Notes: generated by a model not told the origin, from the letters alone. A stretch of DNA of 64,000 bases from Candidatus Aceula meridiana (GCA_030765185.1 JAVCDE010000026.1:17276-81275), one strand, 5' to 3'. Positions 15,001-28,000 are shown, counted from the stretch's first letter. Translations and numbers: made by a program.

Positions 15001-18000
15001 CTAAAATTAAAAGATCTTTTAGGGAAAATTAAAGCATTGGATAAAGAAGCTAAGATTATGGATGAGAATTTTTTGAAAAAAGAAATACACATTCTTGCGA
15101 ATCTTAACAAGGACTATCAAAGTTTTTCTGTTACGCTTAATAGCATTTTATCTGTATTTGAAACTTTAAAGATTTATGTTTATGAAAATGTTAGTAGCTG
15201 GCAACCGAAAGATGAGAGATTAACGCCTAAAAAAGAAACTCCATTTCTTGTTCCGCTAAGAAGACTTCGCAAGCTAGACGACAAAGTTGTTTTGTATGAA
15301 TTTGTAATTGGAATACCGGCTACTTCAGAAGAGAAAATTTTGATAGAAAAACTTCAGCAAGTAACAAATGGCGGAGTTGTTGAAATTGTAGAGGCTTCGT
15401 CAGCGATTTCGTCTTTAGCGTTTTTTGACTTTATTCCGCAAGATGAGGATGCTGAGACGAAAAACGCGCGTCCAATAATCATTATGGAAGACGACGATAA
15501 AGAAACAACTAGGGTGATGTTGAACATATGGTTTTTTGATCGTGAGAATTTTGATGCCATGATGGAAACGTTTAAAGGAACAATGAAGGCTAAAAAGTCG
15601 GGGGTTATAAATATTAGCCTTGATCAAGAATTATCGAGACTTCATAAGATGCAGCGGAATATCCAGCGGCTGGAACGAATAAAAAAGACTATGGATCCGA
15701 ATGCGGGGAGCCTAGAATTTTTCGATAGTACTGTTGGTCTTGGACAAATTAGAATTAATAGGCTTAGAGGGGGAGCATCGTACGAAATAACAATCAGAAA
15801 AGACGATAAATTAGGGTATGTTTTAGTTTGCAAGGAGCAAGAGGGTGCTGAAGAAGTTATTATTGTAGGTCTGAAATCGACCTTGTCTCCGGGAATGACA
15901 ACCTTACCTCTTTTAGGGCGAGGCAAGACTTTTGGGGAGGCGGCTAAAAATGCGCATTCAGTCCTGACGGCAGACCAAGAGCTGGACAGAGAAATGTATG
16001 ATGTAATGATGCATATATGGTTTAAGGCTCGGAAAAGGTTTGGGCGTATGCTTAAGATCTTCAAGGTCAAGATCAGAACGAATGGCGCAGGGGAGATAAC
16101 CTTGAGTATTGGCGGGCATCGAATAGCCATCGGAAAATTAAAAAAGAACACTTTTTATACAGTAACTCTAAGGCGAGATGCTCATTTTGGATATATTTTG
16201 GTGTTGAGGACGAAAACGGGAGAGACGGCTATCGTAAAGTTAAATGTGTCATTGACGAAGAACACATATCTTTCTTCTTTGGGGCGGGGGAAAACTTTAG
16301 GGAAGGCTATGGAGAGGGTACAACAGAAATATCCAAAATCTGCGCACTCTCTTTCAAAGGGCAAGTTGAGAAAAGTCGAAATAAGGGATCTAGTCAAATT
16401 CGTTCAGGCTGGATTTGAGCCAGGGGAAGAATTGAGTTGCGCATACGAATATGAACGAGTATTGAGCTGTGGATTTCTGATGGATACCTATCGCGTAAAG
16501 GAGGGGAAGTTGGCTTCTCGTTTAAAAGAAACGATTGTTGCCGAAGCTCCTCCAGGCATACAAAAAGCACTTGATGCTTTTGAAGCTGTCTATGGGAAGG
16601 AAGTTTCTTCCGTACCGTTTACCCACGAAGGTCAAGATTATATTTTTATCAATTCTTTGTGTGACCTATCTTTTACCCAACTCTGTGAAGCCATTATTTA
16701 CGATACCTGCACTCTGGCAGGAATGTATCATTCGGGTGCTAGCCTGAAATCTCAAAATTTGATGTATGGGCATAAAAATGAAGATGAGAAAAACAGGGTT
16801 TATTTAAAGGCTATGTATAGTGTTTTGACTAACTATCAGGAAAAGGCTGATGTTATTGTTGATGATTTTTATGTGGAGGCAGAAACTGACAGTCTTGGGA
16901 TAATAGAGGTTTTTACACAGGGAACCACATTGCAGATTTGTGCCCCCAAAAGGGATACTGTCTATGAAATAACGCTTAGGGACGATAAACGATTAGGATA
17001 TGTCTTGATTTTGAAGGCGAAAGACGGTGCCCAAGAGTTTGTTATAGTCGGGATGAGACGCAATCTTAACAAAATATCAACAACCTTCCCGATCTTAGGA
17101 CAGGAGCCAACCCTTGAGGAGGCTCTTGAGAACGCAGATTTGACGATTATTGAGGAGCAAGAAGAGAGAGGTGAGATTCGGACAATGCTGAACACATGGT
17201 TCTTTTTTGATCGTGAGAAATTTGATGCCATGATGGAAACATTTAAAGGAACAATAAAGGCTAAAAGGTCGGGTTGTATTGATATTAATGTTGATCGAAA
17301 ATTATCGATGCTCAGTAAAGCGATGTGGAATGCTTGGAGGTTAAATGGAATAAGGGAAAAGATTGATTCAGCTGCCCAAAGAATAGAATTTTTGGATAGT
17401 ACTATTCGGCTGGGAAACATTAGAATTAATGGGCTCAAAGGGGGTGCCTCGTATGAAATAACTATTAGAAAAGACCGTCGATTAGGGTATGTTTTGGTTT
17501 TCACCGAACAAGATGAGGCCCCAGAAGTTATTGTCATTGGGATGAAAGAGGTAATAAGTACGAAAAAGACAACATTGCCTATTTTAGGACGAGGCAAGAG
17601 TTTTGATGATGCGATAGCAACCGCGCAGCCGGTATTAACGGCAGGCCAAGAGCTGGATTGGGAAATGTATGAAGTAATGCTAAATATATGGTTTAAGGCT
17701 CGGAAAAGGTTTGGGCGTATGCTTAAGATCTTCAAGGTCAAGATCAGAACGAATGGCGCAGGGGAGATAACCTCGAGTATTGGCGGTCATCAAATAGCCA
17801 TCGGAAAATTAGGAAAGAACACTTTCTATACAGTAACTTTAAGGCAAGATGCTCATCTTGGATATATTTTGGTATTGAAATCGGAAAGAGGAGAGACGGT
17901 AATCGCAAAATTAAACGAGTCATTGACGGAGAATACATCCTTATCTCTTGGGGGGAGGGGAAAAAGTTATTCAGAAGCCTTGGATAACGCCTTGGCGAAG

Positions 18001-21000
18001 GGGATTATTGAGGGGGTAGTAAAAACAATAATGAATGAAGGAAGAATAAAGCAACATTTAAAAGCTTATGGAGAGAAAGGAAGTCTTAGCCAAAAAGATT
18101 ATTTGGAATTAATTCAAGAGGTAAAGGGAATGAATTTTTCAGCTATTTTATTATTGAACAGTATCTTTTTAGGGAATCTTAGTGATGAAGTGCAAGAGCG
18201 GGTTATTATTCGAAAGTTATTTCGTTATCGAGCAGAAAAACATGGTCTTTTTGAGGCGTATATGAGAAATGCGATTGCCATTTCGGAATCTTTTTATAAA
18301 AAAACAATGCAAAGGTTTTCTGAGGATATTCCTGAAGATAGAAATAAATTTCTTATTGTGGAGGAGGATCTAGGCTCTTTCGTATTTGATTGGCTACAAA
18401 TTGCCAAGAGATTGCGCGGGATAAGTGAAGAAGAGAGAGCGTTATTGATCAAGTCAATCCAAAGCATAGACGCTGAATTTTTTGATGTTGAAGAATTTCT
18501 TAGCAATGGAGTTGATAAAAGAACTTTGATTCTCTTCGGAGAAGCTCTCCAGGAAGAGGGTTCGGAGGATTATCCTCTTGTCACATCTTCGGCAGTGACG
18601 GGCAGGAAAAACATTTCCTCCTCAGCCAAGAGTAAAGAGGAAAAAGCGTCGTCCACCGCAGAAGGTTTGCCTAACTTGACAAAAGGACAGTTTAGAAAGT
18701 TTGCTCAAAGATTTATAAGGTCGCAACCTTGGGATACGAGAAGTAAGTATAAAAGCTCTCTTTTTGAATACGGAGATTTATCAGATTTTGAAAATCTTGT
18801 GGAGACTGATTATCTTAAGCATCCTGCCGAGACTAATTTGAGTGGGAAGTATTTTTGCTTTGAAGATTATAAGATTTTTAGCCTTGGCCAGTCTCAGATA
18901 GGATTTCTAAGGAATGCTACAAATTTTTTAATTTTTATGCCTGAATTTACCGGATGTAAATGTTTATCGCTTCATTGCTTGGATAAGAAGCCTAGCATTT
19001 ATGCTACACATTTAGGCAGCACTTTTGATTGGAAGCGATTTTTTGAATATTTTGTTAATCTTTCAACTGATCAAAAGGAAAATATGAAGTGTTGGAGTTT
19101 ATTTTGGGAGCATCCTTTTTCTGAGAAGAGCATGGAATATCTTATTAGGATTAATAAAGAGTTGCCGCAACAGATTTTTGATATTAAAAAGAAATATAAG
19201 CACTCTTCATTATTTTTTTCTCGTCAATTTTCTTTTTTAATTCATTTTGATTATATCGCCATGTTGTCGAACAGAAGGGTTGAGAAAGTTCTTGCGCTTC
19301 CTTCGCAGCGGTCTTTTCGTCCTGATCTATTGCAAAATTTCTTCTCTTTGATTCAGCAACGGTATCCTCTTATCCCATCTCGGAGGGAAGTTGTTGATGG
19401 GATTAAGGGCATTGCGCCAACAGTCTTCCAAAAACAAGTCATCTCCTCAGCAGTAACCTCATCGGCGGTAGCGACAATGGTAGCAGACGTATCCGCGGCA
19501 ATAGCGCCTATTGCCTCGATGTGGGCGCCTATTATCGTTTTTAGCTCAATAGGTGGATTATTGCGATTTGCAATAGCTAAGCATATTGACAAGTATTTTA
19601 AAGGAATTTTTCCTTATGGCACGCTGGGCGTGAATTTATTAGGTTCCTTGATGATGGGATTTATAGTCGGAGGCGTTGAAGTTATTGGTGATATTCCTGC
19701 GTGGCTTATCGGCGGATTTCTAGGCGCTTTTACAACTTTCTCAACATTTATTTTTGATATTGAAACTTTAAGAAAAAGTGGAAAATATCGAAGTCTTGCG
19801 GGATACACTCTTTTAAGCATTTTAGGAGGTTATTTTGTATTTATTTTTGGGTATTTCGCAGGGTCTTTTGGTTTAAACACGAATATGAAAATCATTTTTG
19901 TTTCATTGATCATTATTCCTCTTTTTGCTTTTCTTGCCTTTAAAAATTCAGAAAATAAAATTCCATCTTTGCGAAAAATCCCTTCCTTTGTTTCCGGGCG
20001 AGAGACTCTTTATTTGTCGATAGGAGTTACGCTTGGGGTTGTTTCAAGGATGCTTTTTCCAGGCCAAACACTTTTTGTCAATATTCTCGGATCCTTTTTA
20101 ATTGGCGCGGCTGATTTTGGCTTAGGCGATGCATCGAAAAAAAGAAAACTTCTGCTTATTACTGGTTTTTGCGGAACACTGACAACCTTTTCAGGGTTTA
20201 TTTTAAAAACTCATGGTTATTTAGCCGCGATAACGCCTTTTGAGGCAGCCGCATATATATTGGCGAGTGTCGGTTTAGGGTATTTATTTTTAAAAATTGG
20301 GGAAAAATTTAGTGCTTTTCTGCTTGGAAATAAAAAAGATACAGGATACAAAGGGCAAAATAGGAAAAAAAAGGAGGAGGTTTCTTCGGCAACCCAACCC
20401 CATGGAGCCTTAGGCGAACATTCTTCAAAGCCTTGGCGAAGAATGGATAAAAATCTTACCGCAAAGGAAAGTTCTTCCTCGACACAGCCCAAAACGTCTA
20501 AAAATGTGGCAGAGACAAAAAAAGAATATAAATTCTTTTCCCGTTTTAAAAATGGCAAGGTTATTGAAATTGAAGATTATTATGGTGCTCCAGCCGAAGA
20601 GGCTCAGGCTATAGATTTAAGAAAAGCGGTTGAGGACGCAAACCTATCTTATGCTAATGCTGACGACCCGGACGATTTATCGACTGATGATTATTTTAAA
20701 GATATCAACTTGCAGGCAGCTGAAGACATTCAGTGGTTGATTTTTGGAGGGGCTTTTAACGGGTGTCTGAAAGATGTTATGGAAAGAATCTTGCATTGTG
20801 ATGAAGTTTTTTCTGATGAATCGACATTGCGGATCACATTGCCGCTTTTTGCTATTAAGAAGCTCTATAGCCTTCAAGTGAGCAAGTACACATATGATGT
20901 TCGTAATTATCTCAACCCTGAGAGGATTCCCGAAAGAATCGCCGAATACTCTAAAGAAGGATTAGGGGTTTTAACAACAGGCCAGGAGGATGTAATCAGC

Positions 21001-24000
21001 CCTGGCTATCATTATTTTATGTTACCATACAACTCTAATTATAAAATCATCATCCGAAAAGATGGAAAAGTTTTGCGAACCATCAAGGAAGATGGTGCTC
21101 CGATAGTGATTCTTGACTTCTTTACGTCTCTTGACTCCATGAGAACTCACGCCTTTAGGCCAGTTGCCTCTTCCTCGTCTGCCAGCAAAACTATTTTACC
21201 AGCTAACAAGGGCGGATTAGAGTTGCTACGCAAGATGATACTCGATGTTTTGAACGAAAAAGGTCAGGTCAGATTGGCAATCGATGGTGGAGTCGCAGTT
21301 GGTAAGAAGTTTTTGGTCGCAGCCATTCTAGAGGGAAAATTAGGCTTGACTCGTGATGAAATTTGTATTGCTCTCTTTAATAAGTATGCTTTCAAAAGAC
21401 TAAAGGATGGTAGAGATCTCTCTAGCAAGAAATTGTTAATATTCCCTGGACACTTCTCTAGCCGTTTGTCCGATGTTGATATTAAGGTCCATTTGGTTAC
21501 TGACGGTACCACGCAGCGGTCTGATATAGTACTTAGAGGTCAGGACCTTAGCGATTACCCAGAGCTTATGAATTTTCATTCATTAGTTTTAAATGAGCTA
21601 GAAAAGAAAGAATTTGACCTAACAATCGATAATAGCCAACGGTATCGGATGCCTTTTAAGCAGATGGTAGAGCTGTTTAGCGAGCCGCGCACAAATGGAG
21701 CCTTAGGCGAATATCCTTCGAAATCTTGCCGAAGAGCGGATAAAAATCTTATCACAAAGGGAAGTGCTTCCTCGGCACAGCCCAAAACGCCTAAAAATGT
21801 GGTGGTTACTAAGCGTGAAAAGGATGACTTGAGAGATATGAAGCTCTTTAAAAGATTTTATGACGGGGATGATGATGCCTTAGGCGAGTTCTTTGAAATT
21901 CGTAGACCTTATTTTATGGGATTTTTGATAAAATGCAAACCTGGGGCTATTTCCCGCGATGACGCTGAAGATATTTACCACGATGTTTTTATCAAGGTGT
22001 TTGATAGAGAACGTACACCTTTTAAGGGAGAAGACAAGCCGAGGATTTGGATAAGAACCATTTTACGAAATGCACTTTTTGATCGCATGAAACAAAAAAA
22101 GAGCAAGAGAACAGTTCCCCTTGACCTCAAAACGTTAGAGAATTTTCTCACCCTGTCAGGTGTATTTACACCGGAAGATTGGAAGAGTAGAGAAAAAATG
22201 CGTTTGTTGATACAGAGGAGGATTAGTCAACTACCAGCGACGTATAAAAATTATTTTCTTGCCCACCATTACGATGGTTTTAAGTATAGGGAAATTGCAA
22301 AGAAGGAAGGTGTTGCGGAAGGCACCGCTAAGAGTACTGTCCATAAGGCACTTTTTTACATGATAAAGGTGTTGGCGCCGGATATAAGAGAAGATCCGAA
22401 ATTGTTGGAGTATTGCCGGGAGCACTTGAAGGATTCTCTCAAAAAGGTTCTTGGAGCAGTTGTAGTTGCGGTTTTAAGTGGCGGACTATTGGCATATGGT
22501 ATGTGTAATAATGCCGGAATGACAGAAGGGGTTGTATGCGCTTTTATCCTGCCGTTTTTCACCTACGCAAGTTATTCTAAGTTGTTAAAGACAATACATG
22601 CGTTATTCGAGGATATAAAAAGGTGCATTTCTTCATTCTTTGTTTCCTTGACCAAGGCGGCAACTTTTATTTTACACATAAGTATTTCTGGCATACGTCT
22701 TGTGTCGGGGGGTTTAAACTTTGGCACGCATTTTGCGTCGGGGGTTTTAAGACCGCTAGCTCAAAAGTATATTTCTTTACGAAAAAAATTCCGATCAAAA
22801 GATAAGCAGGCTAATCAGAGCGGTTGGGGCACAATAGCTGCGAAGGCGTCTTATTTGAAGAAACCATATCAAAATAAATCGCTAGGGAAAAGGGATGATG
22901 CGCCTAACAGTTCTTACTGGAAGAATGGTAGGCGCTATGTAAAAGAAAGAGGTTCTTGGTTTTTTAGCTTTAGCCCGGTGTTATTTTTCTTCAAAGGAGA
23001 AATTTATGCTCTGCTACAGGCCTTAGAGATTCCTTGGCAAGAGATAGGGATGACGGGATTAGTTGTCTTAGGGGTAGTGGTGATAAAGTTTTTTGCTGCA
23101 GAGAAAGGTGTTCGCATTGACACAAAAGAAAACAATAAAAATAAAAATTCTTTAGATATCACGCCGTTATCCAAAAGAAGAAATTTTTTAAAGACTGCGA
23201 CAAATGTTTTTTCTATTTTATTAGTTATCGGACTAGTGTTTTTGATACCGCTTGATGCTGTCTATGCGCAGGGTGTAGCTGACCCTGTTGAGAAGACTTT
23301 TGACCAAGAAAAAGAAATCTTTTATAAAAATTTAAAGCAATCTGCCTTGCCTTTTATCCAGCCGTTTGTTGCAACACAAGAGGACGCCAATAGGTTTGCT
23401 AATGACTTTATCTATGAGGTAGCGGGATGGAAAAGAAGCGACGGGGAACCCATTCTTTACGTCTGGAGCCAGCGGCTTAAGAATGCGCGAAGAGGGGGTC
23501 ATAATAAAGAAGTGGCTCTAGATGAGGTGATCGCCCTTGAGCTTGAAGCCATAAAAGAAATCCGCACCATTATTCACAATCGTTTTTCTCTTCATGACAA
23601 CAGTCAGGATGCGTTTCTTATTCATGAGATTTTATCGACAAATCAGGCCTGTTCTTTAGGCAGGGCACAGATTCTTTTTATCGCGCTTAATGCATTGGAA
23701 ATTCAAACATTAGGGGTCACCATGGAGGATCTTGAGGCAAACTCCCAAGGAGAGCGTGGAACATCTATTGTTGTCTCAGCTCGTTTGGCAGATTCTCGCC
23801 AAGTTTTGATAAACGTTACACTTGATTCGCCGAATTTTTTAAGCGCTGCATGTGCTTTAAGTGAGATATTTATTGCCCATGATTGCGCTGTTGAATTTAA
23901 TCCTCAGTACGCCGGAAGTCAATTTTACAGAAATATTCATATTCTTGGTATGAGAGGGCTTATCTCCGCAGCTCATACAGATTTGGCCGTAAAATATAAT

Positions 24001-24531
24001 AGAAATTGTTCTTATGCGGCCGCACTTTATCATGCTAGAGAGGCTGTTGATTTGGACTGTTGTAATGAACGGGCTTCTTTGGTTTTGGGAAATATTTATT
24101 TTAACCAAGGAGAATATGATGAGGCGATTCGTTATTTTCGTAAAACTCTTTATATCCAAGATAGCAGGGAAGGCTATTTTAATTTGGGAGCAGCTTATCA
24201 AAAAACAGGTCGCCTTAAACTAGCTAAAACTTTTTTTGGCAAAGCGATACGTGAGGATCCACTTTTTTCATTGGCGTATGCTTACCGCGGCCATATTTTT
24301 TATCAACTTGGAAAATATAAAAAGGCACAAAAGTTTTATCGCCGAGCCCTTAAGATAGAGCCTCAAAGCGTTGATGCTGCTTATGGGCGGATACTATGCC
24401 TGATGAAATCTAATCAGATTGAGCAGGCAAGACAAGAATTCCTTAAAATGCTTGAGCTTCGCTCTCTTAAAGAGTCTGTAGATGAGGAGCAGATAATCAA
24501 GCTTGCTAAAGAGCTTGGTGTAGAGATTTAA
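1..24531 (+). CDS. giant multidomain membrane-associated protein; 5' end lies upstream of the window (>=8,176 codons in window)
   Basis: Frame 1 is open from nt 1. I translated nt 1-300 by hand and found no stop; the ORF track starts at a TTG at 292 only by convention. There is no TAA/TAG/TGA for ~24.5 kb of AT-rich DNA, which is essentially impossible without selection. The stop TAA is at 24529-24531. Multiple recognisable domains are listed as separate features below. Confidence 0.85.
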   Translation, partial: VEKQLTLLDQLEAIRRHISRTLGEEVALNQIFSQVVIPDLSAKARESLRNDPEGSRVEIKSKALAEKLRKALEKGEAQVSKYLEGAQPEVTAEHIQILESQGIEVLKVPEDKITGIDKRKPLYDNDYLATLLLNVGKITVKNTASSGSLIKKSTTLLTTKELKRIDRKYKEILAVYNEKGEFHGNKKRGEIYSEAGNFVKIADVIAFGSNGFVLQRRSKPQSPATLSVHGGHVELGDCPVEAAVREVEEEIGIAIDPSRLIQVGEGDLMFKMLENDAVENPHIDEQGRYISNSGVKGRIVNRFMAVYVLFMTREEIEKAKQYVASRKAKNLSDVDVRNEVSEIVEKNIEELIEDVAISPAEYATGIRYYLTWQRSLSLIQKIIKGTETARLIKKDINCDIARQAGEAEEASSNILCICNSNFNRSPAIELVFDYLIKTAGMIDKLLVDSGAVEQESKFGWGGVNETLADAFRAQFNVEPKRILSEPLSLEQIREAHIIVIATNKIRQKVQGRFAGELGKKKIFVMEELEQQMDIVEFRNSPNDDASILFKYCQIIDAMIWPLIIQSQQKPGVLSNEDLAIKVKRDRLLLYLKKTPLKEELAVSELSKRFDIHENVIRAMIRENFKYPESSDSYLDVLTEGGKSTDKVKLFTAIHRDGDWHLGIQVILITSEGEFVLFKRPSGKFGFIGGHVDVGEESKVAGIRETIEETSLTVVDQKRIIRVGRFKKEGILGIAGIKLNDFSEFPTVNISLKGTEKNVDLEDIYVYMLNRKEYRQLQKMADEQDALKVSEGELSGLTTESFEEISDGLQHRAERYSIGSQMVFKVASIKKGLKDIAGALVQKEIINKDRKSNEDFSSSINNLEKNSVGYTRLMQKFWSLFTNSIKDGISKEDLAFFKTRRNLETGKLINIYCASYSFWIDAKTEIGIKLSDFQKKMMKVLPADLQNKIVLFKNFHITIAVPLRDIDSPYSEETINFIANDLDGIASEVKSTEFDIVGLNAFPGGILFAQAYPVYDNNGEFELDKFEEAVNQRSPHALHYESNVFHITLGFLKDKLTPKQSAEFVDSLAKLRTSPIGKLRVTEMQLDYYNNLLIPEKILKKYSLSSSGIRENSKNFKPFEKITEDAVTIDVLYQRPGQNFQQVPQVKIPSYKDTKNGKLSSATEALGREGYSRDEEFLTQKSKNAESTEERSRQEPLSSSRGNSPVESAPNMPISTPVKINAPITPILLMPSVVSSAAFLLSRNAKNGKADMPIGILGNGLAEWFAENNNSAPNVIRNKNIDKNEPLSVAFSSRGGILSRFKKTAALLFIRAALLSIEKLAQKPLSVAFSSRGGILSSFKKTTAFLFIRATLLFIEKLAQKPLSRQLSSRGGNELEAAASSIVQKTIIVASIILSLIFLTPTATPAQAQTESYSIENVDYLTEADEQKLSVAISEIGYPQDFQEFYAAGFEQVLADIDAYELGRRWQESDIDGYKDIMKDFRKRMRKNDYFQRTYPLSNKPRNPFVQKWANALRLEEGHIFDVVKATELGRVDQTEQFKDYRLHRWQNHVLYFMLKVWGIDFDVVATEKYYVYLIERDRTKDTLAPELTHLYLDGYEGVLGAVNLEDEVYTLKGQQWISDITVSKKTFCENTAMLATPPLRGFFFTPYYFHYGQNESDFLKADMYFGYAFAYLNAEKYSKGIEYLTRGLRLNPFVKDRWIELARIYRYLAWLKTRGKYQTQESSESLYKKAAAAYNEAIELDPYDLTKVFELAEDVYLEIGEIEKAEECFAKAIMLDMRVKYRMERLVKKAEKDQKKKDQKVNNKASSNNETKLNLLQAFINSEDVSKFLPLKLRNIEQRSNSGIISSACESLSLAISKEKNKSSSNSILKTDVIINLNTSSWGDLPDRLTSSVAGGGRFTPAWRVSSSAASSAQNARKFNKELEIFWDIYQALIRAALKTNNHILTRQEIRGFINHYILVIDKDRDLASEFLKILDIMDFRPPQLWDAYPPACPKVEKRFYESLIIRNPAPFVEKGKLDFSAVLDLPEGRKISQDEYHFLSKLRGERNSLLVDPIFIVARIERQWALYNLQGMICKEVFKENQKTGTFKILRNSRFLNVFDTCYFKNQNSHLNFEALPNLFSSGQEVHQEIFLSMRKHHQKELSFTELLSNYFLKPFILSQIYLFRNIFDIPIKPKKKMEKALKEIKASSNAKNNKIFSPKDIIQAIKETEEVLREISRFKAVRISEPRAFGLLGAKLKSAGLQTALTLQILTTYREDIENSKRTPTQSFFKRIQSLKFRAQHELQWREGKIDDAFESLLSALALAVEVETQEVVDEMFQELLNKIIVEGKGQSEELMRRRTQIFYDAIIAGEDKDFNEKVLLRALTDLRKIIYTAAISQSQSAINRVIRFGLVLFIAQKEINLFEKSVVDSNNIEIQKDVAGAYENSARALIELDADIKDLQKAEQYIQKAVKLQPEEDAYKCYLNNVYLKQTIHYINEGELIKAEKAFEKAVADDLIDALERQDLETIGIDLYLGVIYLLQGKSIAEIDGTFAEAFEATDVSILLSYSERLESREKFLTYLSEAIQRDLSVEAKTAMAEFLKKTSYSIGGAIMAFRKKIKNLFAKGKYEEAKEHLTVYFSLVSQDAALKDLGIKIDKIITILARAKISEGSENVSKVLAEYEKVLAINPADENLVEKIAQIKKKEIERIAQIKEQEEKDQREAKKINTIGMHLRNAGNQIAAKKFDRAQKNLEKAREVIDSLEEPQESLSLLWKKISDDLTRNRKAPKTVEKEVVGETGKRKKPSLIVAPSNEETKTNKEETTHQKINVYAIGAVRTLLKGKEEQEQKRIWQAVYFERDLKPVEGASFSLYTVRFGSVRILIIPREVNKKRKSWIIAAVVNRAILNNTAKYGKIISNIGKRWDVYQKDARLIKPKKDWGSSSASIVQDKIIWIATYQQMASSLGSAQIKDQVQDIDFSSNFLNADCLLCQSLDKQGAVFFAVCDKRIIGYVILKETGFIPRIAVHEDFHRQHVGAQLFESCKKRALEQGIRSLFLDFYNLNNACGKRRKAFFESLGMSISSLSKKQYLFRAKYELKISSGARLINPKKAWVSSAAKARSLPLGRKSSSSIYLINLLGVSHDTLANTENFWNKIVTLLKEDGVAPEKISILNNLYEHIKGFYQADDIISHGYHCLLHSLEVAVDGYIAGKNKGYTKEERLELLVSGILHDLDPRNGVFRIPRVVNTVAFLESDKIIQGYIEDLELSFEKVIINILRTHYPWKEGAPLKFIQRLNKSIKGDEKRSRQKEIAETLALIDKVAVYARLNPLVAEYRVRQLAKETKCNADELVKNTLLFLEKEMKDFDAMLGNFLPSEFTKNFGKTKAHFEKRREELSSSTIRPSKSFSVPKANFKRVVKKAQTVSSTIKVKVDEQVSKRAETLHLEKTLHEAIKHIEDSTGTIIQLGWKHLNLGLSKKIIKMVSMRQLLYNQYNFLHFVLPDDSICLIEMVNVHADWWDHQWRKSLKCSIERALKPFIEDQKGKDQKGKERPVDILEEFVKQNLENMSLVNLKNSRRPFVVVNFPVDSIVSLKKLLAKDGVRFQDAEDDDQFDVCSKERPHCRVGIDRGKKTVIFSPSFFKGKSAPFDVWFTTNLINEFLEKKKAVEKKEKSFPGKGKASSTAFRAEKTESKDRINLEDVVLKDYLKNHSKTELKKVLQEINYEAYMDWELLITDWIEEEDAAVDYGEGSIVFARKNGKEVGYFLRRGNKFSFMAVRENERGNRIGPDMFIYALNKAKADGFSIVTFDVEYTNEEQLRSLDRLKKEKKISFQKQYFSRVFIYTARLVSSSAKSKKGKVSSIKACASSLILTEQDLRLSRQHGLGIRYVSPVGGEIVEENKRVVNILNREYPNYLDEKINFIVLTEQRAKKFSLDSKEIRVAFSGHPSHGRQLFYPLRNKIDDIYLYLGAKGCGDLVSKCLTHSISRYRNNGLAYLDDFQNAQVFTDILRMKGARVPLHVAACKLDYILDQDGNVIEISDDMRASTADHQVGFQRKPSLHFILYDYYDRLGYLTYAVKKDPGLLKIRKQLGNLSQEQYFLHIIKELAYTEAKKVELGVTKVSFHENDITLSGMEVDWDEASYVKDIAFGDPYSRLTKNMEEKKFYRKYGFLLFDYRRKLEILQRFQISLTEHALFKISNINVQQEFYRTFLDSLSLDMRRRVIAATSSNIKIKTATSDDIPFILSQFRKRIKSWSQVKMNYKKDNSKNFFSSPLALSNIRSVFYSVKEIFGEKMPCKEQNRPMLPFDSKSLPILFSVSPIVLVPLILVSGVSVAVMAKSALSIAIIFGILGFIVLLREWFAQMRAAPNSKEILYVMVLNEPLMHKSPSRGGEISSAAHLFARAFSAASSAVSAPRASSTAKLKKKKNTFDYHCFFDVLGMPKYFQENPESYNIINYMNYTIQALRTPENFKGKVARILSLLNRTSEESLGYLESVAKDIYAPLANRVGFLEIAEQIKDSIFKARFPDLWLKSERQILQALGGISREEANRYLLEVSNKIKSRLKELGVEVEAVYLRVKGASSGYEKVKNKRGDKTSYNKIARLQDLFGLHIILKNNDDYWKVAGLLLGWDSTMAPYQDLGGELDVQQTEEKRRFKGDKYDAYHFGIKIPVSPKAKEKRKFVMMEIKLFDPDKYLYFRYSQEIAAWIYELTRRYPNQEFLSGGLTLMSSDPEKNFKNLYFYFKNWIYFFFVQDNNLDDCCILKPAGLKKGVIMADVLGLLGVDEFLALTQSEPVLREGMNQKDHALLSGFSFGQMIRKNQDPDVKKFNKTVIQELRVGDFLQVDPMRRAEFTDQEKKKISEKARHLRTLLRLQLKPGDFYNMSFPSNERQKKATLGIIKLTKAGEDRVVYKFLFRDEIAQAVGFNDGIYMCAVFGLCEVSITTEVAKQAIEGKPWLMSRVVTIKAKGGQAKKTFVELTLSLDYDYSELMKAVVSVVAQVGAEIFDSQYFGKKVKMTISILEENILKLKDLLGKIKALDKEAKIMDENFLKKEIHILANLNKDYQSFSVTLNSILSVFETLKIYVYENVSSWQPKDERLTPKKETPFLVPLRRLRKLDDKVVLYEFVIGIPATSEEKILIEKLQQVTNGGVVEIVEASSAISSLAFFDFIPQDEDAETKNARPIIIMEDDDKETTRVMLNIWFFDRENFDAMMETFKGTMKAKKSGVINISLDQELSRLHKMQRNIQRLERIKKTMDPNAGSLEFFDSTVGLGQIRINRLRGGASYEITIRKDDKLGYVLVCKEQEGAEEVIIVGLKSTLSPGMTTLPLLGRGKTFGEAAKNAHSVLTADQELDREMYDVMMHIWFKARKRFGRMLKIFKVKIRTNGAGEITLSIGGHRIAIGKLKKNTFYTVTLRRDAHFGYILVLRTKTGETAIVKLNVSLTKNTYLSSLGRGKTLGKAMERVQQKYPKSAHSLSKGKLRKVEIRDLVKFVQAGFEPGEELSCAYEYERVLSCGFLMDTYRVKEGKLASRLKETIVAEAPPGIQKALDAFEAVYGKEVSSVPFTHEGQDYIFINSLCDLSFTQLCEAIIYDTCTLAGMYHSGASLKSQNLMYGHKNEDEKNRVYLKAMYSVLTNYQEKADVIVDDFYVEAETDSLGIIEVFTQGTTLQICAPKRDTVYEITLRDDKRLGYVLILKAKDGAQEFVIVGMRRNLNKISTTFPILGQEPTLEEALENADLTIIEEQEERGEIRTMLNTWFFFDREKFDAMMETFKGTIKAKRSGCIDINVDRKLSMLSKAMWNAWRLNGIREKIDSAAQRIEFLDSTIRLGNIRINGLKGGASYEITIRKDRRLGYVLVFTEQDEAPEVIVIGMKEVISTKKTTLPILGRGKSFDDAIATAQPVLTAGQELDWEMYEVMLNIWFKARKRFGRMLKIFKVKIRTNGAGEITSSIGGHQIAIGKLGKNTFYTVTLRQDAHLGYILVLKSERGETVIAKLNESLTENTSLSLGGRGKSYSEALDNALAKGIIEGVVKTIMNEGRIKQHLKAYGEKGSLSQKDYLELIQEVKGMNFSAILLLNSIFLGNLSDEVQERVIIRKLFRYRAEKHGLFEAYMRNAIAISESFYKKTMQRFSEDIPEDRNKFLIVEEDLGSFVFDWLQIAKRLRGISEEERALLIKSIQSIDAEFFDVEEFLSNGVDKRTLILFGEALQEEGSEDYPLVTSSAVTGRKNISSSAKSKEEKASSTAEGLPNLTKGQFRKFAQRFIRSQPWDTRSKYKSSLFEYGDLSDFENLVETDYLKHPAETNLSGKYFCFEDYKIFSLGQSQIGFLRNATNFLIFMPEFTGCKCLSLHCLDKKPSIYATHLGSTFDWKRFFEYFVNLSTDQKENMKCWSLFWEHPFSEKSMEYLIRINKELPQQIFDIKKKYKHSSLFFSRQFSFLIHFDYIAMLSNRRVEKVLALPSQRSFRPDLLQNFFSLIQQRYPLIPSRREVVDGIKGIAPTVFQKQVISSAVTSSAVATMVADVSAAIAPIASMWAPIIVFSSIGGLLRFAIAKHIDKYFKGIFPYGTLGVNLLGSLMMGFIVGGVEVIGDIPAWLIGGFLGAFTTFSTFIFDIETLRKSGKYRSLAGYTLLSILGGYFVFIFGYFAGSFGLNTNMKIIFVSLIIIPLFAFLAFKNSENKIPSLRKIPSFVSGRETLYLSIGVTLGVVSRMLFPGQTLFVNILGSFLIGAADFGLGDASKKRKLLLITGFCGTLTTFSGFILKTHGYLAAITPFEAAAYILASVGLGYLFLKIGEKFSAFLLGNKKDTGYKGQNRKKKEEVSSATQPHGALGEHSSKPWRRMDKNLTAKESSSSTQPKTSKNVAETKKEYKFFSRFKNGKVIEIEDYYGAPAEEAQAIDLRKAVEDANLSYANADDPDDLSTDDYFKDINLQAAEDIQWLIFGGAFNGCLKDVMERILHCDEVFSDESTLRITLPLFAIKKLYSLQVSKYTYDVRNYLNPERIPERIAEYSKEGLGVLTTGQEDVISPGYHYFMLPYNSNYKIIIRKDGKVLRTIKEDGAPIVILDFFTSLDSMRTHAFRPVASSSSASKTILPANKGGLELLRKMILDVLNEKGQVRLAIDGGVAVGKKFLVAAILEGKLGLTRDEICIALFNKYAFKRLKDGRDLSSKKLLIFPGHFSSRLSDVDIKVHLVTDGTTQRSDIVLRGQDLSDYPELMNFHSLVLNELEKKEFDLTIDNSQRYRMPFKQMVELFSEPRTNGALGEYPSKSCRRADKNLITKGSASSAQPKTPKNVVVTKREKDDLRDMKLFKRFYDGDDDALGEFFEIRRPYFMGFLIKCKPGAISRDDAEDIYHDVFIKVFDRERTPFKGEDKPRIWIRTILRNALFDRMKQKKSKRTVPLDLKTLENFLTLSGVFTPEDWKSREKMRLLIQRRISQLPATYKNYFLAHHYDGFKYREIAKKEGVAEGTAKSTVHKALFYMIKVLAPDIREDPKLLEYCREHLKDSLKKVLGAVVVAVLSGGLLAYGMCNNAGMTEGVVCAFILPFFTYASYSKLLKTIHALFEDIKRCISSFFVSLTKAATFILHISISGIRLVSGGLNFGTHFASGVLRPLAQKYISLRKKFRSKDKQANQSGWGTIAAKASYLKKPYQNKSLGKRDDAPNSSYWKNGRRYVKERGSWFFSFSPVLFFFKGEIYALLQALEIPWQEIGMTGLVVLGVVVIKFFAAEKGVRIDTKENNKNKNSLDITPLSKRRNFLKTATNVFSILLVIGLVFLIPLDAVYAQGVADPVEKTFDQEKEIFYKNLKQSALPFIQPFVATQEDANRFANDFIYEVAGWKRSDGEPILYVWSQRLKNARRGGHNKEVALDEVIALELEAIKEIRTIIHNRFSLHDNSQDAFLIHEILSTNQACSLGRAQILFIALNALEIQTLGVTMEDLEANSQGERGTSIVVSARLADSRQVLINVTLDSPNFLSAACALSEIFIAHDCAVEFNPQYAGSQFYRNIHILGMRGLISAAHTDLAVKYNRNCSYAAALYHAREAVDLDCCNERASLVLGNIYFNQGEYDEAIRYFRKTLYIQDSREGYFNLGAAYQKTGRLKLAKTFFGKAIREDPLFSLAYAYRGHIFYQLGKYKKAQKFYRRALKIEPQSVDAAYGRILCLMKSNQIEQARQEFLKMLELRSLKESVDEEQIIKLAKELGVEI
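590..975 (+). other. domain within giant ORF: Nudix hydrolase fold (Nudix box 1)
   Basis: GGHVELGDCPVEAAVREVEEEIGI at nt ~688-755 matches the Nudix box G-x5-E-x7-REUxEExGU (compare MutT GGKIEMGETPEQAVVRELQEEVGI), with D substituted for the first E. Domain boundaries are approximate. Confidence 0.65.
1234..1640 (+). other. domain within giant ORF: low-molecular-weight phosphotyrosine phosphatase / ArsC-like fold (C-X5-R P-loop)
   Basis: ILCICNSNFNRSPAIELVF...SGAV...EPLSLEQIREAHIIVIAT aligns with the LMW-PTP N-terminus (e.g. YwlE IIFVCTGNTCRSPMAEALF...SAGV...SPLTEELMESADLVLAMT). The C-N-S-N-F-N-R-S-P stretch matches the C-x5-R(S/T) P-loop with the conserved Asn. Confidence 0.5.
1970..2330 (+). 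other. domain within giant ORF: second Nudix hydrolase fold (Nudix box 2)
   Basis: GGHVDVGEESKVAGIRETIEETSL at nt ~2062-2130. The G-x5-E-x7-R-E-U-x-E-E motif is present; the terminal G is replaced by S. Confidence 0.55.
2780..3250 (+). other. domain within giant ORF: possible 2H phosphoesterase (LigT / cyclic nucleotide phosphodiesterase-like) fold
   Basis: Two H-x-T-x motifs, FHITIAVPL (nt ~2861) and FHITLGFL (nt ~3131), lie ~90 aa apart. This is the hallmark arrangement of the 2H phosphoesterase superfamily. The assignment rests on this motif pair only. Confidence 0.35.
3849..4125 (+). repeat. in-frame tandem repeat (~120-nt / 40-aa unit, 2.3 copies) inside giant ORF
   Basis: EPLSVAFSSRGGILSRFKKTAALLFIRAALLSIEKLAQK / PLSVAFSSRGGILSSFKKTTAFLFIRATLLFIEKLAQK / PLSRQLSSRGGNE. 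A 44-nt block (ccgttgtcagttgctttttcctcccgtggcgggatattaagcag) is identical in copies 1 and 2. The SRGG motif recurs at nt ~13089. Confidence 0.8.
4948..5330 (+). other. domain within giant ORF: TPR-like helical repeats
   Basis: AYLNAEKYSKGIEYLTRGLRLNP...AYNEAIELDP...AEECFAKAIMLD shows the TPR-like 34-aa periodicity (W/LG/Y...A...F...A...P). Confidence 0.45.
8830..9190 (+). other. domain within giant ORF: GNAT-like N-acetyltransferase fold (tentative)
   Basis: RIIGYVILKETGFIPRIAVHEDFHRQHVGAQLFESCKKRALEQGIRSLFLD...KRRKAFFESLG resembles GNAT motif A/B (V.E.R..G.G..L...A...G...L.L...N..A...YEK.GF). The match is imperfect. Confidence 0.4.
9480..9930 (+). other. domain within giant ORF: HD-domain phosphohydrolase-like
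   Basis: HGYHCLLHSLEVAV...(~25 aa)...GILHDLDPRNG gives the H...H...HD...D metal-binding pattern of the HD superfamily. Confidence 0.45.
11110..11375 (+). other. domain within giant ORF: second GNAT-like segment (weak)
   Basis: GYFLRRGNKFSFMAVRENERGNRIGPDMFIYALNKAKADGFSIVTFDV resembles the GNAT core (V.E..RG.GIG..L...A...G). The motif is degenerate. Confidence 0.3.
13222..14000 (+). other. domain within giant ORF: RelA/SpoT-homolog (p)ppGpp-synthetase-like nucleotidyltransferase domain
   Basis: YAPLANRVGFLEIAEQIKDSIFKARFPDLW aligns with RelA LAHRLGIHHIKTELEELGFEALYP. VYLRVKGASSGYEKVKNKRGDKTSYNKIARLQDLFGLHIIL aligns with GRPKHIYSIWRKMQKK...DVRAVRIV. DDYWKVAGLLLGW aligns with DCYAALGIVHTHY. 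YDAYHFGIKIP...FVMMEIKLFD aligns with YQSIHTVV...VEVQIRT. A possible ACT-like segment follows at ~14830-15060 (FVELTLSLDYDYSELMKAVVSVVAQVGAEIF...MTISILE). Confidence 0.6.
15506..18010 (+). repeat. in-frame tandem duplication (~1.67-kb unit, 2 copies) containing five copies of a ~95-aa module of unknown function
   Basis: RVMLNIWFFDRENFDAMMETFKGT (nt 15511) and RTMLNTWFFFDREKFDAMMETFKGT (nt 17176). An 84-nt block encoding WFKARKRFGRMLKIFKVKIRTNGAGEIT is 100% identical at 16018-16101 and 17689-17772. The module consensus is x-Y-E-I-T-[IL]-R-x-D-x-x-LGY[IV]L[IV]...LP[IL]LG[RQ]GK[ST]...EA...A, with copies at ~15770, 16140, 16950, 17440 and 17810. Confidence 0.8.
19519..20300 (+). other. domain within giant ORF: fused tandem pair of CrcB/Fluc fluoride-channel domains (integral membrane)
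   Basis: Copy 1 is SIGGLLRFAI...FPYGTLGVNLLGSLMMG...LIGGFLGAFTTFSTFIFD, compared with E. coli CrcB GGGTGSVARW...IPLGTLAANLIGAFIIG...ITTGFCGGLTTFSTFSAE. Copy 2 is FPGQTLFVNILGSFLIG...ITGFCGTLTTFSGF. Both carry the GTLxVN and TTFS(T/G)F signatures. Confidence 0.8.
21850..22390 (+). other. domain within giant ORF: ECF-type sigma-70 factor (regions 2 and 4)
   Basis: Region 2 is DDALGEFFEIRRPYFMGFLIKCKPG...AEDIYHDVFIKVFD...WIRTILRNALFDRMKQ, matching ECF AEDLVQETFLKAW...WLyrIarN. Region 4 is LPATYKNYFLAHHYDGFKYREIAKKEGVAEGTAKSTVHKALFYMIKVL, matching LP...R.VF.L...EGLSY.EIA..LG.S.GTVKSRL.RAR..L. A predicted TM helix follows at ~22440-22560. Confidence 0.75.
24005..24465 (+). other. domain within giant ORF: C-terminal TPR repeats
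   Basis: ASLVLGNIYFNQGEYDEAIRYFRKTL...GYFNLGAAYQKTGRLKLAKTFFGKAIREDP...LAYAYRGHIFYQLGKYKKAQKFYRRALKIEP are canonical 34-aa TPR units (LG..Y...G.Y.EA...F..AL...P). Confidence 0.7.
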
Positions 24532-24860
24532 AAGAGAGCGCACCAACCCTTAGTTAACCCTTTCGGCTTAAGATAACAAAAAAAACGCCAATAACTCGTG
24601 CCCACACCAGCAATGGCTAGTTTGGATTTCTAAGTTATGTCGCAGGTTTCATAGCTTAAACTTTCATTAAAAGGTAGCGCTTTCCCGAAAGCACCCTTAT
24701 CCCCTTACATTCCCCCTATATATGTTCTATACTTATTGTAGATTCTTTTAATTGTAGGATGGTTCTTTGACGATCAGAAAAAGGCAAACTACCCGTAAGG
24801 GTAGGGCGCAAAGTTATAGGGTCCTTTATAGGATAGCCAACTATCAGAAAAATATACACC

Positions 24861-25017: not shown

Positions 25018-28000
25018 ATGCAATTATTTAGCAGAAAAAGACCAATTTTGAAGGCAACAAGCACTCTTGTTGTGCTTTTGGCCTTTTTGGTGAATTTTGC
25101 GCTTTCTCCATCTATTGGATATGCGGGGTTATTGGGATTGCCAAGTCCTGGAACGATGGTTCCTTTAAGTTCCGGATTCATTCCTACCATCCTACGTGGC
25201 ATTAGAATCCATCCTGATAATCCCTTTGAATTTGATTTTATTGTAGATAATGGTAACAGTGGGTTAGAAGGCGATGAGCTAAAGAAAGAAGGCGAAAAGA
25301 TTATTCGTTACTTCTTGGCTTCTATGACCCTTCCTGAAAAAGATGTGTGGGTCAACCTGTCTCCTTATGAAAAAGACCGCATTGTTTCAGATTCTCTTGG
25401 GTTTACAGAGATGGGCCGGGACATGCTTGCGCAGGATTATTTGCTAAAGCAAGTTACTGCATCCTTAATTTATCCAGAAAATGACTTGGGGAAAGAATTT
25501 TGGGATCGCGTTTATGAAAAAGCTTACCTTGAGCATGGCACAACCAATATTCCTATGAATACCTTTAATAAGGTATGGATTATTCCTGAAGAGGCCACGG
25601 TTTTCGAAGAAGGCGACACAGCATATGTTGTTGAAAGCAAGCTAAAGGTTATGCTCGAAGAAGATTATCTTGCCATGACTCAAGGCAAAAAACATAAGGC
25701 AGCCGGCAAAGAAGCTACAAGCTCTATTTCCTCGGAGATTGTTCGTGAAATTATTATTCCTGAGATTGAAAAAGAAGTTAATGAGGGTAAGAACTTTTCC
25801 GCTTTGCGCCAGATTACTAATTCTTGGATTTTGGCAACATGGTTTAAAAAGAATTTTAAAAAGTCTCTCTTAGGTCGTGTTTATAGCGACCAAAGCAAAG
25901 TAGAAGGTATTGATATTGAAGATAAAGAAGTTAGTAAAAAGATTTATGGACGATATCTTCAAGCTTTTAAAAAAGGTGTTTGCGATTATATTAAAATTGA
26001 TTACGACAAGTATTCTAAAAAACATGTTCCGCGTAAGTATTTTTCTGGTGGGGTAGTTTTAGCCAGCAGCGCTATAAAGTCGTATGAAAGAGGGTCAGAT
26101 GCTGTTATCCCTGAAAAAGCTCAGCAAGGACTTACAACATTTACAAGAAGGGCAGAGCGTGCAATTTCTAGAGGAGGCATGTTTATTTTAACAGGGGTGA
26201 TGCTTGTAGCAGGCTCGATTGCCCCAAAATTCAGCTTGGCCAAAGACGGTGGAGAAGCTGCCTCCAAGAAGGTAGTTCCTTCTGGCATTACGTATCCTAA
26301 CGAATACGGTGCGGATCAGCATATGCCAGGCCTGCTAAATATGCCAGGCCTGCCAGTAGCAGAAGGTGGGAGTGGCGATGCGCCGGCTAATCCACCGGTT
26401 GGTGAGACGGGAAAACATGATTACTTGGAGAATTTAGGGGGCCAGCATGGAATGATAGAATCAAAGTTTAAAGGAGTTGTCACAGAGGGTAGCCGTTCTT
26501 TTTATACATTTGAGAACACAAGTATTAAGACAGGAGCATCCTTAGGGGAGACCCACTTTCGAGTCACTGTAAGAGGAGGACAACCATTTCTTGAATATAC
26601 GGTTTATTCTGGAGAGGAAAGCAATAATTATTATAACAACTCTGCAAAGAAATGGTCTCGTGCAGGGAGGGGTGAGGTAACAGATCGGATAGAGCTAAAG
26701 GGCGAAGCCCAAGATGAGGGTAGGTTTTTAAAAATTCGCGAAGAGGCTCAAGCAGTTGTCGATCATGCTTATAATTTTGGTGTTGGAGCTGATGTTGCTC
26801 CGACGACACTCGGAAACCTAGTTGCTTTAGCTTATCGAAATATACAACAGCGAATCTGGGAGATAATTAAAGACGCAGGGGATTTGTTTGAAGGAAAAAA
26901 ATCTTATTCTTTAGATGTAGATTCTTCGGGAAGAGTATCTATCTCCACTGAAGGCTTGAGTTCTGATAAAGAAGTTTATGAAAAACCGACAAATTACGAG
27001 GTGACCTATAACCCTCAGCAGGATCAGTCAGTCACTTTGAGGGTTGTTCAGATCGATGTTTCAGGAACAATAGATTCAAAAGAACTTCAGCAGGAATTTA
27101 ACGCATTAACCTTTATGGTTGAGAATGGCGGCGAACAAGATTTGTATCTTATTGGTCTTTCAGGCGGGAATAATGCCGAACTTGAGAATTTGGATTTTAT
27201 GTCTAAGCAGAACGCACTTAAAACTATAGAAGAGATGGGAAGTCGTTATGATAAGGGCAATGGCAATACTCTTTATATCGAAAAGACATTGGATGTACAG
27301 AAAAAAACAAGAGAGAAGAAAGAAGAACTAGAGGCGTTAGGAAAAGAAGTAAAAGTGGAAGCTTCTGCTATTTCTGATTATCAACAAGATTCTGATGAAA
27401 TAGGTGATCAAAGATTAACAGAGGATGAATATGTTAATGGAGCAACACGTGAAGGAGGATACACCCTAGAAGGCGGTATCTATAAAAAAGTCGTTCAAGG
27501 GTGGAAAGATCTTGGGGTGAAGAATGTAAATAATTTTCATGTTGAAACAGAGGGAGAAGTGTCACCTTTAAAAGATTTAATGGAGAAGGAAGGAGGGCAA
27601 ATTTTTATTCCTGTTAAGGCAGATTTGAGCAACTTGGTTAAAGTTGTTGAAGAAAGCCAAAAGGAAGAAGTTCTTTCTATTCAAGTGCCGGCAACAGTCA
27701 ACAAAGAGAAGGTTTCTGTTTATGTTGTTAATAAAGAAGGAGGAATTCTCGAGAATTTGGTTGTCAACGGCGCTAACCAAAAACTCAATGAAAATCAAGT
27801 TTCTTATGACACAACAGGCTTTAATGATGGATTTGTCTATTTAGACCAGACTTTAGACCAGACAAATCTTATTTTTTCTGATTCGCTTAATGTAAAATTA
27901 ACTGGTGCTGAAGAAGTGACGGTTAAGATGATTCCCAGAATTAAAAAACACGATCTTCAGGCACAACAAGGGGAAAAAATTGTTGGTGTTGATGTTAGTA

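Follow-up and report, generated by a model that had tools for sequence, protein, structure and literature searches.

Organization of the Giant Gene

The 64,000-nucleotide (nt) stretch of the Candidatus Aceula meridiana genome analyzed here (GCA_030765185.1, JAVCDE010000026.1:17276-81275), referred to below as the window, begins inside a giant mosaic gene (1–24531) in which about 20 complete protein-sized units are joined in one frame. Frame 1 of the plus strand is open from nt 1 to a stop codon at 24529–24531; the resulting 8,176 codons, or 24.5 kb, are a lower bound, since the open reading frame (ORF) runs past the 5′ end of the window. The joins between the units carry a short motif of two serines followed by a small residue, termed here the seam, which is the main subject of this study. 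All features of the giant ORF given below lie on the plus strand.

Reading of the ORF, Pfam searches and self-comparison show protein-sized units in one frame, as anticipated by a preliminary description of the sequence as a mosaic of modules. Pfam matches include NUDIX (two matches), low-molecular-weight (LMW) phosphatase (LMWPc), LigT 2H-phosphoesterase and TPR; GNAT (two matches), HD and RelA/SpoT-like nucleotidyltransferase (RelA_SpoT); and CrcB (two matches), Sigma70 regions 2 and 4 of the extracytoplasmic function (ECF) type, and again TPR. The first 128 amino acids (aa) of the ORF correspond to the C-terminal end of a CofD-like unit. Many distinct enzyme families tile the ORF, none of them dominating, and the units match whole Pfam profiles from position 1–4, so that several complete proteins share a single frame. 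A fused CrcB-CrcB fluoride-channel pair, identified by Pfam and self-comparison, is encoded at 19531–20310 (aa 6511–6770), and an ECF sigma factor with regions 2 and 4, identified by Pfam, at 21952–22353 (aa 7318–7451); a channel pair and a sigma factor are both embedded in one ORF of >8,000 codons. The sigma factor is followed by a transmembrane (TM) segment at aa 7483–7501; TM segments and then TPR complete the last unit.

The 24.5 kb of this gene present in the window are its 3′ part, and the gene is of the multi-enzyme giant type reported from Omnitrophota. Domain searches cover the visible 8,176 aa; the N terminus of the giant ORF, where the literature places the C39 or S8 peptidase and SecA-like domains of Omnitrophota multi-enzyme giants, is outside the window. 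The visible part contains no glycosyltransferase (GT), methyltransferase or SecA-like domain and no C39 or S8 peptidase domain.

Homologues in Omnitrophota

A search of the whole window ORF against 5.8 billion proteins returned two homologues only, P0001 and P0159, both from Candidatus Omnitrophica assemblies, and no true orthologue of the stretch was found in the databases searched. P0001 (4,759 aa) has in common with the window a RelA/SpoT-like unit of 800 aa, which is 42% identical, and a hydrophobic spacer element with the S-R-G-G region; P0159 (5,525 aa) has the LMW-phosphatase unit and the CofD-like end in common with it. A profile search with the RelA-like unit collected 218 proteins, of which the long ones are mosaic and, where named, all belong to Omnitrophota. 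The RelA-like alignment gave no match in GTDB, and a segment of P0015, another of the giant relatives, gave none in JGI contigs.

Like the Omnitrophota giants described previously, the gene is a single ORF of unrelated enzyme domains (NUDIX, GNAT, HD, TPR) with interspersed TM segments, is unique in sequence and has homologues only in Omnitrophota assemblies. It differs from them in that only 8,176 codons lie within the window, in carrying the CrcB pair and the ECF sigma factor, and in having no GT, methyltransferase, SecA-like or C39/S8 domains in its visible part. It fits the NUDIX-bearing “Archaeovorin” type (West-Roberts et al., 2023; 10.1101/2023.11.21.568195) and class 1, “multi-enzyme metabolic clusters” (Nielsen and Lui, 2026; 10.64898/2026.06.07.730766), and shows dissolved internal duplications such as the latter describes; the size thresholds given there are >30,000 aa and at least 10,000 aa, respectively.

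Ser-Ser Seams at the Joins Between Units

The dipeptide SS is the most over-represented in the giant ORF (81 occurrences against 43.4 expected), and the tripeptides SSA (18 against 3.1), ASS (16 against 3.1) and SSS (15 against 3.2) are enriched five- to six-fold. The motif SS[AST] occurs 39 times against 8.1 expected, a number reached in none of 2,000 shuffles (maximum 20), and shows no excess in the other 30 ORFs of the window (10 against 9.5). None of the 39 sites falls inside the Pfam-matched 19% of the giant ORF (P ~2e-4). Nearly every join has Ser-Ser and then a small residue, and when the seams are merged into clusters the pieces between them are mostly ~140–740 aa long, the size of ordinary proteins. 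The flanks are mildly rich in small residues, poor in hydrophobic ones and mildly hydrophilic, the seam being punctate rather than a low-complexity tract.

The region downstream of the CrcB pair illustrates this arrangement. The first seam after the channel pair, V-SSA (20383–20391, aa 6795–6797), and the next one, SSSST (20470–20484, aa 6824–6828), enclose a 26-aa spacer, forming a “double seam.” A third seam, SSSSA (21169–21183, aa 7057–7061), adopts a coil conformation in a low-confidence model, and a fourth, SSA (21769–21777, aa 7257–7259), precedes the last unit, comprising the ECF sigma factor, TM segments and TPR. An AlphaFold2 model of aa 6789–7300 made with no alignment was unusable (pLDDT, the predicted local distance difference test score, 33).

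Blocks of homology between the window and its relatives break at the seams. The first residue of the LMW-phosphatase unit, which corresponds to position 1 of the Pfam profile, directly follows AEEA-SSN in the window and FNDV-SSP in P0159; the window seam A-SSN (1231–1239) and V-SSP of P0159 are positionally homologous, and the units upstream of them are unrelated. The RelA/SpoT-like unit of the window and of P0001 ends at ...VEI(V/K)(E/D)(A/S)S, which in the window corresponds to the seam A-SS-A (15397–15402); homology with P0001 stops there and unrelated sequence follows. The end of the CofD-like block lies ~15 aa upstream of TASSG (window) or GASPI (P0159). In P0110, seams separate HD_4 and RelA_SpoT from Methyltransf_28 (profile positions 2–247 of 249), and this from GNAT.

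The joins of the window gene and of its closest relative are marked by a short, punctate motif, Ser-Ser-[Ala/Ser/Thr]; P0001 and its neighboring giant ORF are of this S-S-[AST] type (14 against 3.9 and 10 against 2.2 expected). In most other Omnitrophota giants the seam between complete protein-sized units is Ser-Ser-Pro-[Val/Ile/Ala/Leu]. SSP was observed 21 times against 1.25 expected in P0015, 11 against 0.7 in P0018, 18 against 0.9 in P0158, 7 against 0.6 in P0159, 5 against 0.28 in P0110 and 5 against 0.25 in P0145. The seams of P0015 are mostly 166–740 aa apart, and the fourth residue is V or I at 16 of the 21, SSP[VI] exceeding expectation (0.17) ~100-fold. In a control set of 120 RelA/SpoT-family matches shorter than 1,000 aa, SSP was found 13 times against 8.0 expected, with seven of the 13 sites in two matches, one of which is a named Omnitrophota fragment. 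The unit boundaries are marked by a short conserved site, which takes the form S-S-[AST] in the window gene and S-S-P-[VIAL] in relatives, and this seam motif is specific to giant ORFs and conserved across divergent Omnitrophota.

A different kind of join was noticed in P0006 (Omnitrophota, 5,805 aa), which has a repeated domain of ~100 aa at its joins instead of SSP seams, in five copies (e.g., aa 1–100). Its sequence, …LEQLLGRAPPELSSWNL..TTDL.LTQGNVAACDI….Y.HPYFF…L.ILYHELISHI…, includes an HExxxH-like motif; a search for a protease signature in this domain gave no Pfam or PDB match.

Repeats Within the Giant ORF

The preliminary description had noted three recurrent motifs at module boundaries, and all three are located between recognizable domains, contain a Ser-Ser core and are nucleotide-level duplicates, in keeping with the duplicative origin suggested for them. 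The first, a long linker occurring twice downstream of CrcB at ~85% nucleotide identity, is present as described, with ends shifted by ~2–6 nt. The repeat finder places its two 108-nt copies at 20402–20509 and 21695–21802, 1,293 nt apart and 87% identical, with similarity stopping abruptly at both edges; the chance expectation of such a pair in 24.5 kb is ~1e-26. After codon alignment, copy A (GALGEHSSKPWRRMDKNLTAKESSSSTQPKTSKNVA) spans 20404–20511 (aa 6802–6837), downstream of the CrcB pair, and consists of the tail of one unit, a Ser-Ser seam and the head of the next; copy B (GALGEYPSKSCRRADKNLITKGSASSAQPKTPKNVV) spans 21697–21804 (aa 7233–7268), upstream of the ECF sigma factor. The seams associated with this motif are those at aa 6795, 6824–6827 and 7257, the last two within copies A and B, respectively. 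The copies bracket 395 aa, close to the single module of ~390 aa proposed previously, but the extra SSSS seam at aa 7057–7060 indicates that this stretch is probably two units. Both of these, at 20485–21168 (aa 6829–7056) and 21184–21696 (aa 7062–7232), are orphans, for which protein and Pfam searches revealed no homologue and no Pfam family.

The codon-aligned copies share 85% of their nucleotides and 67% of their amino acids. Of the 16 substitutions, 13 are non-synonymous and three synonymous, with a non-synonymous rate (dN) of 0.178, a synonymous rate (dS) of 0.126 and dN/dS ~1.4; most differences are first-position codon changes among Ala, Ser, Thr and Pro. The divergence fits ω = 1 and fits poorly the ω = 0.45 of folded internal repeats (P = 0.054), and dS is close to the value for the 38-aa tandem repeat described below. 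The excess of nucleotide over amino acid identity, together with dN/dS ~1.4, shows that the linker peptide drifts neutrally and is not a conserved recognition sequence, contrary to the earlier proposal that the long linker is conserved because it is recognized. A search for the linker in related genomes, as had been suggested, gave no further copy: the 36-aa linker is absent from ~160 related proteins collected, including P0001 and P0159, the linker with the bracketed modules has no match in 5.8 billion proteins or in GTDB representative genomes, the linker alignment has none in JGI metagenome contigs, and there is no third copy in the 64-kb window.

We conclude that the 36-aa linker is a recent, local 108-nt intragenic duplication of one inter-unit join that has been drifting neutrally since, rather than a recognition module, and that only its Ser-Ser core is part of the conserved signal. 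The conserved element is the short seam, which the preliminary description had missed. The block could have been copied by single-crossover (Campbell-type) integration of a linker-bearing cassette, by unequal recombination between seams or by gene conversion. A larger ancient duplication, in which the modules following the two copies would be diverged duplicates, was rejected (local score 30 against a shuffle mean of 37); the sequences after the copies are unrelated, and a short K.F.RF..G match between the two modules is not significant. Likewise rejected were a functional RNA or DNA fold of the 108-nt block, whose sense strand folds no better than shuffles (z +0.03 and −1.54), and internal promoters near the linkers, which show no excess over shuffles.

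The second motif, reported as two occurrences of SSSAKSK with a related KGKASSTAF, is a 40-nt pair with 88% nucleotide identity (chance expectation ~2e-6) located by the repeat finder at 11474–11513 (V-SSS-AKSKKGKV-SS) and 18614–18653 (I-SSS-AKSKEEKA-SS), each copy forming a double seam; KASSTA recurs at ~10966–10983 and 18643–18660. The third, the S-R-G-G repeats with a lone copy near 13089, also proved to be real. It is a tandem 114-nt (38-aa) repeat with S-S-R-G-G in ~2.3 copies at 3851–4116 (repeat finder), with units at 3851–3964 and 3965–4078 that are 92% identical and a third, partial copy extending to ~4116. This tandem belongs to a hydrophobic spacer element (aa 1190–1300) homologous to the one in P0001, and the lone SPSRGG at ~13087–13104 lies in a degenerate copy of the spacer just upstream of the RelA/SpoT-like unit. 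In addition, self-comparison revealed six copies of a 160–190-aa module lacking a Pfam family at aa 5076–6012, and the corresponding region (15226–18036) contains a higher-order duplication of 1,671 nt with 75–87% nucleotide identity and dN/dS of 0.40–0.45.

Codon Usage at the Seams

The codons of the relatives' seams were checked on two contigs, L001 and L002, the latter comprising the DNA of P0159 and its neighbors. In L002 all six Ser codons are used freely at seams, AGC/AGT accounting for 33% of seam serines against 36% of all serines, with examples such as AGCAGCCCT, TCCAGCCCG, and AGTTCTCCC. This mixture of AGY and TCN codons indicates that the constraint across the family is on the Ser-Ser-Pro peptide and not on a DNA word, and a conserved nucleotide motif at the seams is thereby rejected family-wide. 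In the window, TCN-TCN encodes 26 of the 27 strong seams, the third positions varying freely, although AGY accounts for 32% of the Ser codons overall; in L001, AGY codons make up 11.5% at seams against 30% overall. The TCN seams of the window fit both descent from common seam copies and the single-step codon neighborhood of Ala, Ser, Thr and Pro. Overall, selection on the seam probably acts at the peptide level.

On both contigs, consecutive giant ORFs lie 100 nt apart (L001, ~14280–14380; L002, 16577–16676 and 23806–23905), and in L001 the frame includes a run of unknown bases immediately ahead of the second ORF. The apparently separate giant genes of these contigs may in fact belong to a single longer gene interrupted by gaps in the scaffold.

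Possible Role of the Seam

The seam could serve as a recognition site for a factor, acting in trans or in cis, that would mark the unit boundaries of a polyprotein-like giant. The two or three invariant residues, the free flanks, the selection at the peptide level, the confinement to giant ORFs and the incompatible destinations of the units (the CrcB membrane channel, the ECF sigma factor, units bearing signal peptides and cytosolic enzymes) point toward a recognition site. The most probable factor would be an endopeptidase that frees the units during or after translation, as in a polyprotein, because short conserved sites that recur at each boundary of an ORF encoding several proteins are most commonly there for a protease. 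We therefore lean, tentatively, toward the seam being a recognition site at unit boundaries, most likely a proteolytic one. Weighing everything, cleavage of the giant product at the seams is a real if uncertain prospect. The more specific proposal that Ser-Ser-[Pro/Ala/Ser/Thr]-[aliphatic] is the site of a processing protease, the Omnitrophota giants being true cellular polyproteins, is on the unlikely side. The idea of polyprotein processing is thus plausible with the short seam, not the long linker, as its basis: the giant gene looks as if it were built like a processed polyprotein, although we do not claim that it is one.

Targeting signals inside the giants bear on this question. In P0018, a Tat (twin-arginine translocation) motif, DRREFIK, followed by a hydrophobic core and SAFG (aa 810–850), starts 7 aa after the start of an IA-SSP seam, which suggests that the following unit may need, or once had, a free N terminus there. 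In the window, a Sec-type signal-like segment, KTIIVASIILSLIFLTPTATPAQA|Q (4135–4224, aa 1379–1408), begins two residues after Ser-Ser, the preceding SS being aa 1379–1380, and is located before a TPR unit. A textbook twin-arginine signal, SKRRNFLK with a hydrophobic core and VYA|QG, was also noticed at 23170–23277 (aa 7724–7759), immediately ahead of the C-terminal TPR unit; the 40 aa preceding it contain no seam, and there is no in-frame ATG or GTG in the ~20 codons before it. As a general rule, the occurrence of hydrophobic or signal-like segments after seams was discarded, the enrichment being weak (eight of 164 seams against a background of 2%, P = 0.018).

Several points weigh against cleavage. 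Pfam detected no peptidase domain in the visible 8,176 aa, and no cognate protease emerged there or nearby, a neighboring “U32 peptidase” matching TrhP/UbiU-type hydroxylases. Ser-Ser-Pro corresponds to no characterized protease specificity known to us, and Pro beside the scissile bond blocks many proteases. Some seams are paired 10–40 aa apart, and cutting at both would give tiny peptides. Seams are not obligatory, as some joins have none; the C-terminal end of the LMW-phosphatase unit is KPG in the window and SSP in P0159. The internal targeting signals may be remnants of fusion events, in which case they would not speak for cleavage, and the nearly exclusive use of TCN codons at the window seams leaves room for a component of shared descent, or one at the nucleotide level, in this lineage. 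Finally, the seam motif was defined after looking at the data and then confirmed on independent proteins, and the case for cleavage is made from sequence.

The absence of a protease from the visible ORF would equally be expected if the seam were only a flexible soluble hinge and the giant worked intact as a tethered multi-enzyme assembly. Consistent with this, the seams occur in hydrophilic, hydrophobic-poor stretches and are predicted as coil in the low-confidence model, and the residues Ser, Ala, Thr and Pro, all of them common in linkers, interconvert by single first-position changes, as they do between the linker copies. Passive linkers, however, vary in sequence and length, whereas here two serines are invariant amid unconstrained flanks, the fourth position is strongly biased in P0015, as detailed above, and the motif survives switching between TCN and AGY codons, a mark of residue-specific selection. 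An ECF sigma factor tethered in a membrane-embedded chain of >8,000 aa is also hard to reconcile with function. We consider a passive hinge rather unlikely.

A short peptide-level feature centered on Ser and followed by Pro or Ala could also be a modification sequon, subject to O-glycosylation of the PglL or protein mannosyltransferase (PMT) type or to Ser-Pro-directed phosphorylation, which would protect or regulate the joins. Of two ORFs 6–14 kb downstream of the giant ORF, one (30452–32173) is of the GT-C type and resembles protein mannosyltransferases (PMT_2; 25.8 bits, with the cut-off at 26.1), and the other (38454–39119) is of the GT2 type; a link of these ORFs to Ser modification is possible. 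Yet the PMT_2 match is below the Pfam threshold, such genes are common, nothing associates the two with the giant gene, and enzymes of the PMT and PglL types act outside the cytoplasm, whereas most of the units are cytosolic-type enzymes. This explanation therefore appears improbable.

We regard with similar skepticism the idea that the seams and linkers are signals of assembly at the DNA level, i.e., recombination sites or microhomologies for the in-frame insertion, duplication and shuffling of modules, with their conservation a by-product. The sharp-edged nucleotide duplicates of all three repeat motifs, the position of the 108-nt block on both sides of the orphan-unit pair, resembling direct repeats left by single-crossover integration, the breaking of homology blocks at seams, and the TCN bias in the window and in L001 would agree with it. 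Against this, third codon positions at the seams vary freely, the interchange of AGC/AGT and TCN in L002 leaves no family-wide nucleotide motif, 6–9 bases are too short for homologous recombination, and the linker has no significant RNA or DNA structure. Least credible, to the point of being very improbable, is an in-frame mobile mini-element akin to the Rickettsia palindromic elements: the block is a multiple of three in length (36 codons), has sharp edges and drifts neutrally as protein while being more similar as DNA, but it exists in two copies only, both in the giant gene and none elsewhere in the 64 kb or the collections searched, and it is not palindromic by its fold scores and lacks terminal inverted repeats beyond a 7-nt match.

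Comparison with Known Systems

Several known systems share features with the proposed recognition site. The MARTX toxins of Vibrio are modular effector arrays in which an internal cysteine protease domain cuts after Leu in the inter-domain linkers. The window gene resembles them as a bacterial polypeptide of several thousand residues with swappable, independently folding units and short unstructured joins bearing a minimal residue-specific site. MARTX toxins differ in their in-cis protease, glycine-rich translocation repeats and toxin cargo, whereas the window gene has housekeeping-type enzymes, a channel and a sigma factor, its site is Ser-Ser-x and no protease was found in its visible ORF. 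Viral polyproteins, cut at sites such as Q|G by picornavirus 3C or LQ|S/A/G by coronavirus Mpro, likewise consist of many complete proteins in frame, with a 2–4-residue site per boundary and otherwise unconstrained flanks. Unlike them, the window gene is located on a cellular chromosome among normal neighbors and has no identified protease unit, and its cleavage is only inferred. Inter-domain linkers rich in Pro/Thr, Gly/Ser or Gln also connect folded domains and are rich in small and polar residues, as the seam is; the seam, however, is punctate, with 3–5 fixed residues, and not a variable low-complexity tract. The 108-nt repeat resembles Rickettsia palindromic elements in being in frame and better conserved as DNA than as protein, and differs in being non-palindromic, in having two copies in one gene and in straddling a pre-existing unit join.

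Cleavage of the giants has been suspected and treated as an open question, with the cleavage points unknown, by West-Roberts et al. (2023; 10.1101/2023.11.21.568195). Term searches of that paper and of Nielsen and Lui (2026; 10.64898/2026.06.07.730766), limited to the portions available, showed no mention of a junction motif, linker or cleavage site, and full-text literature searches for SSSPV, SSSPI or polyprotein together with Omnitrophota returned nothing relevant. The Ser-Ser seam is a real, family-wide boundary mark that is apparently undescribed.

Neighboring Genes

The remaining 40 kb of the window contains ordinary bacterial genes with normal stops, including AccA, RlmN, BirA, BioF, BioA and YifB, and two tRNAs, showing that the giant frame is not a genetic-code artefact. 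Directly downstream of the giant ORF there is a c-di-GMP-I (cyclic di-GMP) riboswitch (24773–24848, 60.8 bits), and behind it an ORF of 1,381 aa (25018–29163) with no Pfam or NCBIfam match. In a 679-aa ORF (43473–45512) the match to BioA begins only at residue 242; its N-terminal 230 aa may represent a fused second enzyme of the biotin pathway.

Significance of the Seam

The 36-aa repeat that first drew attention to this gene is ordinary. The seam, on the other hand, provides a rule for cutting giants into pieces tractable for prediction of structure and function, makes the question of cleavage directly testable by proteomics, through termini at S-S|x, and offers a way to search for the enzyme involved through phylogenetic profiling. 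If it is only a hinge, it would still be a useful annotation rule, of modest biological interest. A polyprotein-type expression strategy is, to our knowledge, otherwise known only from viruses and, in limited form, from toxins, and Omnitrophota giant genes reach 147,000 codons. If these giants are true cellular polyproteins, their products would be cut at intervals of ~170–740 aa into free enzymes, channels, exported proteins and a sigma factor, with Tat or Sec signals exposed by the cut.

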